The translations under genes were made by a program, and so were the position numbers. Positions 2,420 through 5,658 of a DNA stretch of 64,000 bases are shown one piece after another. Each line of letters starts with the position of its first letter. Position 1 is the stretch's first letter. The stretch comes from a phage. The notes under the pieces were generated by a model. It saw only the letters and a list, made by a program, of their open reading frames with translations. It had not been told where the DNA came from and ran no database searches. The DNA lies in the sequence record PZ476263.1. One strand, written 5' to 3'.

Positions 2420-4036
2420 ATGCCTACTGTAGCTCGTGGTATCACAGGGGATCAAAAAGGGATATACTATGGTTACGCCCTTTATGATTTAGAACAGAAA
2501 CGTAAAATACCGCTCAAGGATCTTTTTGGTTCTGGCGGCGGTCAAGGTGAAGTTGGTAACCAAGGTCCACGAGGTGAGCAAGGTCCTATCGGGACTCAAG
2601 GCCCAGCAGGGCCTGTAGGACCCGAGGGTCCGATAGGGCCAGTTGGTCCGGTCGGACCAAAAGGGGATGAAGGTCCGAGAGGTCTAAAGGGGGAGCAAGG
2701 CGATAAAGGTCTTGACGGAGCAGATGGGGCGAAGGGTGACAAGGGCGATAAGGGCGACCAAGGGGCTGTCGGGCCAGAAGGCCCTCAAGGTCCTCAGGGC
2801 GAGCAAGGCCCCGCTGGTGCAACTGGTGCAACTGGTCCAACTGGACCTCTTGGTCCACAGGGTCCTCAAGGACCTGTAGGTCCTAAAGGTGACAAGGGGG
2901 ATCAAGGCCCCGCAGGTCCGGCGGGATTGGATTGGAAAGGTGACTATGAAACTTCTGCAACTTACAGTGTGAATGACCTTGTTTCCTATAATGGTAAAGT
3001 TTATTTCGCTATTCAAGAGGGCACAGGTCAGTCTCCTGATACTGTTGGAAGTGAATACTGGACAGAGTTGGCTATCCAAGGTGGAAAGGGAGATCAAGGC
3101 GAGCAAGGCCCCGCAGGTCCAACGGGTCCTCAGGGACCAGAAGGTCCTCAAGGTCCTTCCGGTATGCCAGGGGCTACAGGTCCACAAGGACCGATAGGTC
3201 CTAAAGGAGATATTGGGCCTGAAGGACCCGAAGGTCCTAAAGGAGATACGGGTGAGCAAGGCCCTAAAGGAGATAAAGGAGATAAGGGAGATACCGGACC
3301 AGAGGGTCCGCAAGGACCTATCGGTCAGACTGGCCCCGCTGGCCCTGAAGGTCCGCAAGGTAATATAGGACCTGCTGGCCCTCAAGGCCCTCAAGGTGTT
3401 ACTGGTATGACTGGAGCCACGGGTTCTGTCGGACCTCAAGGCCCTCAGGGGGTTAAGGGGGATAAAGGTGACACCGGAGCCACAGGTGAAAAAGGTGAAA
3501 AGGGAGATAAAGGGGATAAAGGTGATACAGGCGCTACTGGACCGAAAGGTGAAAAGGGCGACCGTAGCATGTATTATTATAACCAAACTGTCCAAACACC
3601 TTGGTATAGAGATGGTGGTAGGATAGATCATATGCTACCTAATCATCCTCATCTTAGTATTTCTGTGACAGGTACAGCCACAGATACAACTGCTGGCGGT
3701 GGTTTACAGGTTGTAATAAGTAATCTTGCCAACAATGATCCTAACGGCAGGGATGTTAATGGCGCTTATTTCTATAATCTTATGGATGCAGAATTTCCTG
3801 CAAAAAATAAGATAGTGGCAGGTCCTTATACATGGATAAGACAAAATGGTGCATACTACGTAACAACGGATGCTCAACCAATGAATGGTAGACGTGCGGT
3901 ATTAGAAATAGATATCTCTGATTTCGATACCAAGCAAACTTGGCACGCTAGATTGTACTCTAGCTTCAACCCTACATCACCTACCTCTCTCGGTTTATAT
4001 ACCATAGAAATAAGAGAAACCTCAGCTCAACCTTAA
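2420..4036 (+). CDS. collagen-like fibre protein
   Basis: N-terminal '[22 protein letters not shown]', long Gly-X-Y tracts interrupted by a globular insert, non-collagen C-terminal domain. Confidence 0.65.
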
Positions 4037-4074
4037 TTTAATTATAATTCACAGGGACGTGATTAGGAGATAAT

Positions 4075-5658
4075 ATGACGAATTCTGTAGTAGGTATGGC
4101 AGGTCACAATAATGGTGTATTTTATGGATACTCTCTTTATGACTTGGAGCAAAAAAGAAAGATAGCCTTTAAAGATTTAACTAAGGGTGACTCAGGGGCG
4201 AAGGGCGATAAGGGTGATCCTGGTCCAGAAGGTCCACAAGGTGATAAAGGAGATACCGGAGAGCAAGGCCCTGTAGGACCTCAAGGTCCTGCTGGTGCAC
4301 CAGGGCAACAAGGTGTGCCTGGTGAAAGAGGACCTCAAGGTCCCGAAGGCCCACAAGGCCCTCAAGGCCCAATTGGTCCCGAAGGACCAGTAGGACCAAT
4401 CGGCTCCCAAGGTCCCGAAGGTCCTAAAGGAGAGCAAGGTGAACAAGGCCCTTCTGGATCTCAAGGTCCTCAAGGATTAAAAGGGGATACAGGGGCACAA
4501 GGACCTCAAGGTCCCGTTGGACCCAGAGGAGAGACAGGTGCAACAGGACCTGTTGGACCTAAAGGGGACACAGGCCCAACAGGTCCAAAAGGAGAAACGG
4601 GTGAACAGGGACCCATTGGTCCGCAAGGACCTAAGGGTGATACAGGTCCCGTGGGTCCTGCAAGCTTAACCTTCAGAGGTTTCTATGAACCTCTTGAAGA
4701 ATACAACGAAAAGGATACAGTAGCTTATAATGGTTCTACTTATTTTGCGTTAAGAACCAGTACAGGAGCAACACCGGATATTTCTCCCGATGACTGGGCA
4801 TTACTTGCAGCTGAAGGTGCAGTTGGACCACAAGGACCTATGGGACCAGAGGGTCCGCAAGGTATCGCTGGTGCTCAAGGTCAGGAAGGCCCTATAGGAC
4901 CGCAAGGTGAACAGGGTCCGGTTGGACCTGTTGGCCCACAAGGCCCACAAGGTCCTGCGGGTCAGGAAGGAATAGAAGGCCCTCAGGGACCTCAAGGAGA
5001 AGAAGGCCCTATGGGACCTCAGGGACCACAAGGGATTGTAGGACCAACAGGTCCACAAGGCCCTCAAGGCCCCAAAGGGGACACTGGTGCAGTTGGACCA
5101 CAAGGTCCTCAAGGCCAACAAGGTCTTGATGGTCCACAAGGCCCTGCTGGTCCGCAAGGCGAAAGAGGTGTTACTGGACTAACCGGACCCCAAGGTCCCA
5201 AGGGTGATATCGGCCCTGTGGGTCCGGCTGGCCCTCAAGGTAAGGATGGTAATTCTTACACTATCTACAACTGGGGCAACATATCAACGGGCTATGGTGA
5301 GATGGTAATACCTGGTGTTACTAACACAGTATTCAGAGTGAGACGAGTAGGAACCACATTAGAATACAGTGTACTTAGTAAAGGTGGTGCGAATAGATAC
5401 CTTGACTTCCATACCATAATTCCAGCCCCCTCTACAGGGGGCGCTGTAATTATCCAATCAGGAAATACAACATTGACATCCTCCAGCTCTTTAAATGTTG
5501 TTACATCTGCACCTCCTGGTCTTGGTTTTCGACCAATATTCATCTCTTTAAAAGAGTGGGGAGATAGGGCAATAGTAACCATAGAGGTTTTCCACACAGG
5601 TAGAAGTGGAGATTCCAGTTACCCAATACATGTTCGTATGCTAACGACGAAGTATTGA
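4075..5658 (+). CDS. collagen-like fibre protein, paralog of 2420-4036
   Basis: Same N-terminal motif ('[22 protein letters not shown]') and Gly-X-Y architecture, different C-terminal domain. Confidence 0.65.

Follow-up and report, generated by a model that had tools for sequence, protein, structure and literature searches.

Where on the virion are the products of two adjoining collagen-like fibre genes placed, and which role may they have there? The question is raised by a locus near the start of a 64,000 nt stretch of DNA (record PZ476263.1, here called the window) from a large E. coli-type phage. In the databases all proteins of this type are annotated as "tail fiber", a name given by their collagen content. 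A preliminary description of positions 2420-5658 had proposed two collagen-like proteins acting as alternative receptor-binding fibres on a common attachment site. Both reading frames were confirmed on the plus strand: gene A (2420..4036) codes for a 538-aa collagen-like fibre protein belonging to phrog_5073, and gene B (4075..5658) for one of 527 aa, the orthologue of A5-4_226. Each gene has a ribosome-binding site 5 nt upstream of its ATG (GAGGT at 2410..2414 for A, AGGAG at 4065..4069 for B, both plus strand), and a search for a terminator in the interval between the two genes remained negative. Directly 3' of gene B lies a strong intrinsic terminator (5663..5684, plus strand), formed by a 9-bp stem, a TTCG loop and a T-run.

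The terminator closes a head/decoration unit which consists of a large collagen gene, a gene for a 211-aa protein, A and B. In phiTE and PVP-SE1 terminators are annotated at the corresponding place, behind phiTE_217 and gene 67, respectively. The large collagen-like virion protein gene is truncated by the window start, so that only its 3' part (2..1729, plus strand) is seen; homologues have 1092-1266 aa. Its product (phrog_3904) shows short Gly-X-Y tracts alternating with 'GDFYV..GIGYAWDG' knobs, has three foldon-like motifs in tandem as well as a C-terminal domain, and matches the Pfam families Collagen (E=2e-21) and Fibritin_C (E=4.8e-9, residues 394-432). The internal repeats described for it before as 'GDFYVA.DTGIGYAWDG' are present as three modules of the form GDFYV..(D/S).GIGYA(W/F)(D/N)G plus a fourth, degenerate one. 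The gene of the conserved 211-aa protein (1772..2407, plus strand, phrog_4998) always has the large collagen gene on one side and the fibre slot on the other, and homologues of the protein occur in 113 phage records, including those of the jumbo phages EL, Ea35-70 and RSL2. By mass spectrometry the homologue of the large collagen protein, CB7_10, was seen in virions and the homologue of the 211-aa protein, CB7_11, is a virion protein; altogether, virion mass spectrometry covers the neighbours CB7_10, CB7_11 and CB7_12 as well as pTE217, the product of phiTE_217. Downstream of the terminator the gene order is head-completion adaptor, Neck1, head-completion, tail-terminator and sheath genes. The tail module extends over 10.8-26.8 kb, with the tape measure, the baseplate and two canonical tail-fibre genes at 10.8-25.5 kb. 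These two tail-fibre genes (18992-20626 and 22270-25503) are located 15-20 kb downstream of A and B. The gene for the major capsid protein lies outside the window.

Proteins A and B follow a common plan of N-terminal anchor, collagen tract, CBM5/12-like insert, second collagen tract and C-terminal domain, and this architecture, with a C-terminal domain of 130-160 aa, is held by the ten members of our module table. Both match phrog_5073 (A, E=6.9e-123; B, E=7.3e-129) and Pfam Collagen (PF01391; A, E=4.6e-43; B, E=1.2e-48). The long Gly-X-Y tracts and the globular insert noticed before are real, and the insert is conserved. In A, 45 triplets (residues 37-171, 2528..2932) precede the insert and 54 (residues 221-382, 3080..3565) follow it; the corresponding numbers for B are 53 (residues 38-196, 4186..4662) and 49 (residues 248-394, 4816..5256). 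All four tracts, on the plus strand, are uninterrupted. Proline occupies the X position in 47 of the 99 triplets of A and in 59 of the 102 of B, the Y positions are polar, and among homologues the number of triplets is widely spread, from 48 to 107. The repetitive DNA had been suspected to make the locus prone to recombination and length variation, which holds only in part. Triplet number does vary and C-terminal domains are exchanged among homologues, but the DNA of A and B is repetitive only at 60-78% identity with a 9-nt periodicity, and no exact repeat longer than 20 nt was found in it that could serve as a recombination substrate (longest, 17-20 nt). Because exact repeats are this short, the argument from DNA repeats is weak.

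The insert of A (residues 172-220, 2933..3079, plus strand) and that of B (residues 197-247, 4663..4815, plus strand) form a central knob and are 40% identical. For A the match to CBM_5_12 (PF02839) reaches 26.2 bits, which is just the Pfam cut-off; within the family, 9 of 11 inserts match, the best with E=3.2e-6. Compared with the PDB, the insert profile finds the chitin-binding domain of chitinase A1 (1ed7) with E=1e-3 (1.1e-3). The inserts of both proteins have the sequence characteristics of CBM5/12 modules, including the conserved aromatic residues, and are putative carbohydrate-binding elements.

The N-terminal anchor comprises residues 1-36 in A (2420..2527, plus strand) and 1-37 in B (4075..4185, plus strand). 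Over residues 1-35 the two proteins are identical at 20 of 35 positions (the segment by itself gives a BLASTP E=1e-15). The shared pattern beginning with G.(Y/F), as given in the preliminary description, is found in both, and so is the family motif G-x3-G-(V/I)-(Y/F)-(Y/F)-G-x-(A/S)-x-Y-D ... F-x-(D/E), in which G10, G14, G18, Y22 and D23 are invariant among nine sequences. Recurrence of the motif in homologues had been named as one of the points on which the proposal should be judged; the anchor is present in every homologue found, at approximately 25 loci (15 phage records, 7 from IMG/VR and 3 metagenome loci). The large upstream collagen protein was considered as a further carrier and rejected, as the N-terminus of its full-length homologues differs. 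Lacking the motif, it is therefore not placed on the attachment site of A and B.

A further relationship of the anchor leads to phage phiTE, in which the equivalent slot is taken by phiTE_217, located between phiTE_216, the homologue of the 211-aa gene, and a terminator. When an alignment of A/B-type anchors (A5, 9 sequences) was compared with one of pTE217-type N-termini (A6, 5 sequences) by hhalign, the profiles matched over 36 columns with 95% probability (E=3.6e-8). After trimming of the Gly-rich linker the probability was 93% (E=3.3e-7), and it was 92% when the sequences from the window were left out. Column shuffling never reached the real score in either test (0 of 200; maxima 18.1 versus 35.8 and 17.3 versus 29.5). 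In the profile-versus-sequence comparison (HMMER), the pTE217-type profile ranked A first among the window sequences, but with a non-significant E=0.72, and for this reason the relationship has to be called remote. At the level of profiles, then, the A/B anchor appears remotely homologous to the N-terminus encoded by phiTE_217. In phiTE, pTE217 has been studied by cryo-EM and mass spectrometry (Hodgkinson-Bean et al. 2025, PMC11972413). It is the fifth most abundant virion protein there, with an emPAI of 79,432 versus 533 for the next unassigned protein, and was assigned, on abundance alone and in the authors' own word putatively, to the unmodelled "Pagoda" density at the capsid hexamer centres, the capsid contact of which "lacks symmetry and order" (PMC11972413). 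Between phiTE and A5-4, the closest relative of the window, the major capsid proteins share 91% identity; therefore the T=13 lattice is likely to be conserved.

In contrast to the anchors, the C-terminal domains of A (residues 383-538, 156 aa, 3566..4036) and B (residues 395-527, 133 aa, 5257..5658), both on the plus strand and both predicted to be all-beta, are unrelated, as had been stated before: global identity is 20% and the hhalign probability 1.8%. Kinship between any of the tip types was likewise rejected (at most 2% for all pairs). The tip of A is a near-orphan. It had zero matches in the phage database, in IMG/VR and in the JGI metagenomes, and no record was obtained by an exact look-up of protein A in assemblies. 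A HMMER scan of 1.84 billion representatives gave a single 76%-identical fragment, P0001, on a 1.1-kb contig; three further matches were spurious repeat proteins. A word-indexed search of 5.8 billion proteins returned nothing for either tip, but it also missed the known 99%-identical GenBank relatives of B and is therefore uninformative. Neither Pfam (E up to 10) nor the PDB (phmmer, hmmsearch) nor PHROGs yielded anything for the tips besides collagen. A weak match to the TP901-1 BPP (E about 0.1) was discarded since it is located in the stem region, and BclA matches A and B in the collagen part only. A candidate fold considered for the tips was the jelly-roll trimerisation domain that caps C1q/TNF-like or BclA-like collagen proteins. 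Monomeric AF2 models, built with an alignment of window sequences only, were of low confidence (A, pLDDT 44.5, 9 strands; B, pLDDT 55, 10 strands), and Foldseek found no PDB structure for them at E<=1e-3, only generic beta-sandwiches with TM about 0.3. The B-type tip behaves as a mobile module: it occurs in 26 phage records from four families, nearly all of them coliphages, and is carried also by collagen proteins of T4-like, T1-like and T7-like coliphages. At least seven unrelated C-terminal types are found on one A/B-type backbone, and in the pair UPEC06 and A73 anchor and insert are 96-98% identical whereas the C-termini share 22%. Judged from such sequence comparisons, this diversity of tips on one backbone suggests an adhesin-like behaviour.

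Two genes of the A/B type occur together in this window only, among the approximately 25 loci; the other approximately 20 related phages carry one. Most relatives combine one protein of the long A/B type with one of the short type (pTE217 and mini-collagens), whereas the window has two long and no short. Gene A never exceeds 68% DNA identity to any relative, and phi92 and rV5 were absent among the matches for the locus; in the phi92 cryo-EM paper the terms collagen and whisker do not occur. Among T4-like phages, in VR26 and Kosakonia 305 the anchor (in one version GVYYGYAFYDL) heads collagen proteins directly 5' of Hoc-like head-decoration genes; this N-terminus is found also in VR25 and a third contig of about 170 kb, and in a looser form at the equivalent position of JS10. 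The Hoc-like protein which follows these homologues was compared with the 211-aa protein, and kinship was rejected. The 211-aa protein itself is absent from the T4-like phages bearing the anchor, and therefore the capsid is more likely to be the common partner. In T1-like phages, collagen proteins with the B tip are encoded between the gene for a capsid cement or outer-capsid protein and the major capsid protein gene. In podovirus PAS7 the related gene adjoins endolysin and tailspike genes, not head genes.

Taking operon position, terminator, separate tail-fibre cluster, pTE217 homology and the hoc- or major capsid protein-adjacent relatives together, the evidence suggests a location on the head. 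We regard it as somewhat probable that the two proteins are collagen-like fibres of the head, alternatives on a common capsid site with swappable distal adhesin domains; capsid location, homotrimeric state and adhesin function are what we infer in this. Both would be homotrimers on a myovirus of the Vequintavirinae type. The anchor of about 35 aa would attach the trimer to the capsid, with the centre of a major capsid protein hexamer as the likeliest place. A trimer there would sit on a quasi-six-fold axis as in SPP1 gp12, and a disordered contact such as that of the Pagoda is what would be expected of a trimer on a six-fold site. The stalk would consist of two uninterrupted collagen triple helices connected by the CBM5/12-like knob, with a total length of about 85-88 nm (computed at 0.286 nm per residue). 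Folding of the trimer probably starts at the distal all-beta domain, which probably also binds a ligand, either on the host itself or in the surroundings of the host. With anchors alike and tips unrelated, A and B would occupy a single class of capsid sites, jointly or in competition, and offer two adhesin specificities. Against a head location stand the remoteness of the anchor homology, the gene position in PAS7, the "tail fiber" annotations, the lack of a major capsid protein gene in the window and the putative status of the pTE217 assignment. Moreover, T4-like capsids already carry Hoc at their hexamer centres, which makes these centres a less certain site in those phages.

Two other locations on the virion have to be weighed. 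A and B might be neck or collar whiskers similar to T4 fibritin, with the N-terminus as the element binding head-completion or neck proteins. Their genes directly precede those for the head-completion adaptor and Neck1, the large collagen protein next to them has its foldon-like motifs and Fibritin_C match, and an N-terminally anchored trimeric fibre is the plan of fibritin. Yet the terminator separates A and B from the neck genes, Pfam detects foldon, coiled coil and Fibritin_C not in A and B but, for Fibritin_C, in the upstream gene only, the abundance of pTE217 is too high for 6-12 neck sites, collar or whiskers are not reported for phiTE (PMC11972413), and the T4-like homologues are in the hoc locus and not next to wac/13/14. 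Whiskers are thus unlikely in our opinion. True tail or side tail fibres, attached to baseplate or tail via the N-terminus and setting the host range as alternative receptor-binding proteins, appear quite unlikely. PHROG and GenBank speak for them with "tail fiber protein" or "side tail fiber", collagen-containing side tail fibres are known from lambdoid prophages (EPcl, PMC3368898), the CBM5/12-like profile weakly matches a phage short tail fibre (8ke9, E=0.048), the PAS7 gene is near a tailspike and a third fibre was left unmodelled at the baseplate of phiTE. The cluster of baseplate and fibre genes is, however, complete 15-20 kb downstream and leaves A and B outside; PfN (PF08400), Phage_fiber_2 (PF03406), tail-collar and T4 gp34/37-type domains are absent from both proteins, in which Pfam finds Collagen and CBM_5_12 only; the anchor has a homologue in pTE217, which is abundant and putatively bound to the capsid; and T4-like and T1-like relatives are encoded among head-decoration genes. 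Hence, of the preliminary description the common site with alternative tips holds, because anchors are conserved, tips are exchanged and collagen length varies, whereas the tail identity it implied is opposed by operon position, terminator, the separate fibre cluster, the anchor homology and the positions of the relatives.

A different objection concerns number instead of location. One of the genes, most likely the orphan-tipped A, could be a recent passenger that is poorly expressed or unassembled, so that the virion would have only one functional kind of fibre. The single gene in all other related phages, the low DNA identity of A to any relative and the sole other occurrence of its tip in P0001 fit to this. 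On the other hand, gene A is intact, its 99 triplets contain neither a Gly substitution nor a frameshift, it has a good ribosome-binding site, the gap to the upstream gene is only 12 nt and an internal terminator is absent, so we judge a passenger very improbable.

A wider reading of the head fibres can be put forward only tentatively, and we doubt it more than we believe it. The motif of about 35 aa could be a portable capsid-docking tag which places trimeric fibres on the hexamer centres of unrelated HK97-fold capsids, among them the T=13 shell of Vequintavirinae and T4-like heads, and which is used twice here, giving two collagen adhesins of about 90 nm for a first, reversible capture. Such head fibres would nearly equal the tail of about 100 nm in length, A and B might partition between pentamer-adjacent and hexamer-adjacent hexamers, and structures of the host surface, or gut mucus, would be captured ahead of tail engagement.

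If A and B are head fibres, the widespread family phrog_5073, a "tail fiber protein" by routine annotation in Vequintavirinae, T4-like and T1-like coliphages, would be a class of long collagen-like head fibres, and host-range predictions from "tail fiber" annotations would be misdirected. The Pagoda density of phiTE would gain a defined, conserved anchor peptide, and the precedent of SPP1 gp12, a collagen trimer at the hexamer centre, would reach large Gram-negative myoviruses. The locus would be a natural case of two adhesins on one capsid site, and the short anchor tag potentially useful for phage display. If they are tail-borne, it would be an ordinary duplication of a modular receptor-binding protein.

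Among known systems, a similar general plan is seen in the collagen-like side tail fibre proteins EPclA-D of EHEC prophages (Ghosh et al. 2012, PMC3368898). In the way proposed for A and B, EPclB has an N-terminal attachment domain, collagen, a small knob, collagen again and a C-terminal trimerising domain; EPcl collagens vary in length by multiples of three residues and their domains are shuffled between phages. However, EPcl proteins possess PfN (PF08400), PCoil, Pf2 (PF03406) and PfC (PF06820) and are encoded in the tail module, and none of these domains was detected in A or B. The gp8.5 fibres of phi29 resemble the fibres proposed here in being trimeric, capsid-bound, non-essential and an aid to host attachment, but they have a coiled-coil stalk, sit on quasi-three-fold sites and are unrelated in sequence. 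T4 Hoc and T5 pb10 (T5 has a T=13 capsid with 120 sites) are accessory, hexamer-centred proteins which are attached by one end, expose the other and are implicated in adhesion; A/B homologues of T4-like phages are encoded beside hoc. In contrast to the trimers proposed for A and B, Hoc and pb10 are monomeric; they consist of Ig-like domains, measure 5-18 nm and have no sequence relationship to A and B. In SPP1 the collagen-like protein gp12 forms trimers at the capsid hexamer centres, bound with a symmetry mismatch, dispensable for capsid stability and with a presumed role in adhesion (PMC5292684, PMC7602432). The likeness to A and B would lie in the collagen trimer at a hexamer centre. In this Gram-positive siphovirus gp12 is tiny; its collagen motif is short, its C-terminal part is alpha-helical, and it has neither sequence similarity to A and B nor a distal beta domain or CBM-like knob. 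Nearest in position and anchor are pTE217 and the mini-collagens CR3 gp010, SSBI34 (115 aa), POP15_010 and the gene 67 product of PVP-SE1, encoded in the same slot, behind the 211-aa gene and ahead of the terminator and the neck genes. The homology of the N-termini of about 35 aa (hhalign 93-95%) goes along with an identity of only about 31%. Different from A and B, pTE217 has a globular body of 130 aa without collagen, whereas in CR3, SSBI34 and POP15 the N-terminus is followed directly by Gly-X-Y repeats, as in A and B. These mini-collagens have 8-15 triplets only; A and B extend the arrangement to about 100 triplets, with a mid-stalk knob and large distal domains.

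The window derives from a myovirus of approximately 140–150 kb belonging to the subfamily Vequintavirinae; none of its nearest records, Escherichia phages A5-4, A7_1 and LTH01, covers the whole locus. The two collagen-like fibre genes named in the preliminary description were recovered exactly where it had placed them, as plus-strand ORFs at 2420–4036 (A, 538 aa) and 4075–5658 (B, 527 aa), with good ribosome-binding sites (GAGGT and AGGAG, respectively). No terminator was found in the gap between A and B, and a strong intrinsic terminator (5663–5684) lies directly 3' of B. The proposed module structure held as well. 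Both proteins begin with the described N-terminal motif, here called anchor (20 of 35 residues identical, E=1e-15 for this segment alone), and contain two uninterrupted Gly-X-Y tracts (45 and 54 triplets in A, 53 and 49 in B) with mostly Pro at position X (Pfam Collagen, E <= 1e-43). The rise of collagen is 0.286 nm per residue, at which the stalks would measure about 85 nm (A) and 88 nm (B). Between the tracts sits a globular insert of about 50 aa, 40% identical between A and B, which matches the CBM5/12 chitin-binding fold in 9 of 11 family members (in A with 26.2 bits, equal to the Pfam cut-off; against 1ed7 with E=1e-3). The C-terminal domains, or tips (156 aa in A, 133 aa in B), are indeed unrelated in sequence and profile (global identity 20%, hhalign probability 1.8%); their AF2 models had a pLDDT of 44–55, and Foldseek with these low-confidence models gave non-specific matches only. 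The overall identity of A and B (40%, E=3e-96) is owed mostly to collagen composition, the true homology being anchor and insert. On the minus strand the collagen genes contain long ORFs (2684–3631, 2586–2858, 4192–4473 and 4801–5157; the largest 315 aa), which were rejected as real genes, since the GGN-CCN-NNN periodicity leaves that strand free of stops.

In the relatives a conserved gene order runs from the MCP gene through a ~195-aa gene, the large collagen protein, a 211-aa protein, the slot held here by A and B, and the terminator to head-completion adaptor, Neck1, head completion, tail terminator and sheath. The window begins within the large collagen gene and from there shows the same order; the genes for tape measure, baseplate and two canonical tail fibres fall within 10.8–25.5 kb. 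The plus-strand ORF at 5716–6273 starts mechanically at GTG 5716, but translation probably begins at ATG 5750, which has GGAGG ahead of it, as the resulting 174 aa agree with homologues of 173–176 aa in relatives. Genes run on the plus strand up to about 26.8 kb, then on the minus strand until about 57.6 kb, where they switch back; GC skew flips at about 26 kb and again close to 58 kb. These turns mark the edges of the late structural block.

The partial third collagen-like gene (2–1729, plus strand) does carry the repeated GDFYV...GIGYAWDG knobs. Toward its end are three tandem foldon-like motifs, GGNVYDAPGDGKAYVRQDQGWSEL, EAPTDGGDYVRKNGTWSTL and EAPLEGGFYVRENGEWVKL (Pfam Fibritin_C, E=4.8e-9), followed by another domain of about 100 aa. 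Full-length homologues (L001:4478–8269; L002:3730–7530) have about eight 'LP..GD.Y......Y.W.G..W' knobs between short collagen tracts, and the homologue CB7_10 was detected in virions by MS. The conserved 211-aa protein (1772–2407, plus strand; phrog_4998) turned up in 113 phage records, among them jumbo phages infecting Erwinia (Ea35-70 group), Pseudomonas (EL), Ralstonia (RSL2) and Serratia (PCH45); among the matches listed there was no record of rV5 or phi92. Annotation notes of PVP-SE1 tie both this and the large fibre protein to genes of phage EL, which suggests an old two-gene module.

Recurrence of the anchor, on which the preliminary description had staked its reading, was seen in every homologue found: in 15 phage records, with one copy each, in 7 IMG/VR loci and in 3 metagenome contigs. 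All share the plan anchor, collagen tract, CBM-like knob, collagen tract, tip, with 48–107 triplets, 262–808 aa and at least 7 mutually unrelated tip types. Phages UPEC06 (L004:5986–7584) and A73 (L003:6518–8101) present a clear domain swap, a recent tip exchange, with anchor and knob 96–98% and the tip 22% identical. B has an orthologue in A5-4_226 (tip 99%, DNA 86% identical, continuing downstream). A is divergent from relatives in every module, and no relative matches it at the DNA level above 68%. Its tip was not found in 50,697 phage genomes, IMG/VR or JGI metagenomes; a scan of 1.84 billion representative proteins yielded a single relative, a fragment of 290 aa. The word-indexed protein search overlooked known relatives, so its negatives carry little weight. 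Two A/B-type genes, and with them two versions of the anchored fibre, are unique to the window among the homologous loci found: phages of the E. coli clade have just one, and Certrevirus-like phages have one plus a short gene of the type of pTE217, the product of the phiTE slot gene phiTE_217. The SSBI34 gene (L005:5989–6777), of only 262 aa, is possibly truncated, as it ends within a second CBM-like motif (VNWRGNWFRNTTF...). In POP15 (L007:6061–7185) the annotated start of POP15_012 leaves out the anchor, which is encoded in-frame upstream without an ATG. Uncultivated relatives of ~152 kb encode fibres of 808 aa (L018/L024:5992–8418; ~160 Gly-X-Y windows, implying a predicted stalk much longer than those of A and B) and 269 aa (L015:5989–6798), both with further novel tips.

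Despite 'tail fiber' annotations, operon position, the phiTE slot, anchor homology, the capsid and other lineages point to the head; here, as in all we say on location and function of A and B, we infer. At the hexamer centres of phiTE's T=13 capsid, a 2025 cryo-EM study describes unmodelled 'Pagoda' density that is weaker on hexamers next to pentamers and loses order at the MCP contact; the authors putatively assign this density to pTE217 because that protein ranks fifth in virion abundance (PMC11972413). The MCPs of A5-4 and phiTE are 91% identical. The pTE217 N-terminus, MAAIGGTSLGLVTGYAIMDQETGQVKTISELFEGG, recurs in same-slot mini-collagen proteins of CR3, SSBI34 and POP15 and, more divergent, in the PVP-SE1 gene 67 product (RefSeq 'head fiber protein'). 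At the profile level it matches the A/B anchor (hhalign 95%, E=3.6e-8; 93% without the Gly-rich linker), a score reached by 0 of 200 column shuffles with or without linker; the relationship is remote, as plain profile-versus-sequence search was not significant (E=0.72).

In the T4-like lineage, VR25, VR26, Kosakonia 305 and a third ~170-kb contig all have collagen proteins that open with an unmistakable A/B-type anchor (e.g. GVYYGYAFYDL...). The VR26 and Kosakonia 305 genes sit immediately 5' of genes for Hoc-like head decoration, a position shared by a JS10 gene with a looser motif. T1-like phages carry collagen genes with B-type tips between the capsid cement/outer-capsid gene and the MCP gene. 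As the 211-aa protein was not found in the T4-like phages with this anchor, the capsid shell is the more plausible shared docking partner. Beside the collagen gene of AugustePiccard, a 'putative head outer capsid protein' (L008:4621–5910) has a GDSL esterase/lipase domain (Pfam E=4e-13), a hint of a possible enzyme-bearing capsid decoration.

That A and B adjoin neck genes and have a foldon-bearing neighbour would also suit neck whiskers, which we consider unlikely in view of the terminator after B, the abundance of pTE217 and the homologues in the hoc locus. True tail fibres, the reading of the database annotations, could appeal to the gene context in PAS7 and to a third, unmodelled phiTE fibre; the position of the genes and the lack of attachment domains in A and B speak against it, and we hold it to be quite improbable. 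Very improbable is that one of the two copies is a passenger which is not assembled.

A and B are best described as a probable capsid decoration at hexamer centres, made up of long collagen fibres whose anchor is conserved. Up to 120 sites would be available, shared by the two fibres or contested between them, and the two might display differing distal domains in the role of accessory adhesins; tips that are host-restricted in distribution and often exchanged would fit ligand-binding modules. Each protein may form a homotrimer nucleated by its C-terminal domain; the analogy drawn on here is the PfC domain of the EPcl proteins (PMC3368898). Three anchors would then dock at one hexamer centre, a three-on-six mismatch that would explain the smeared phiTE density and that SPP1 gp12 likewise makes (PMC5292684, PMC7602432).
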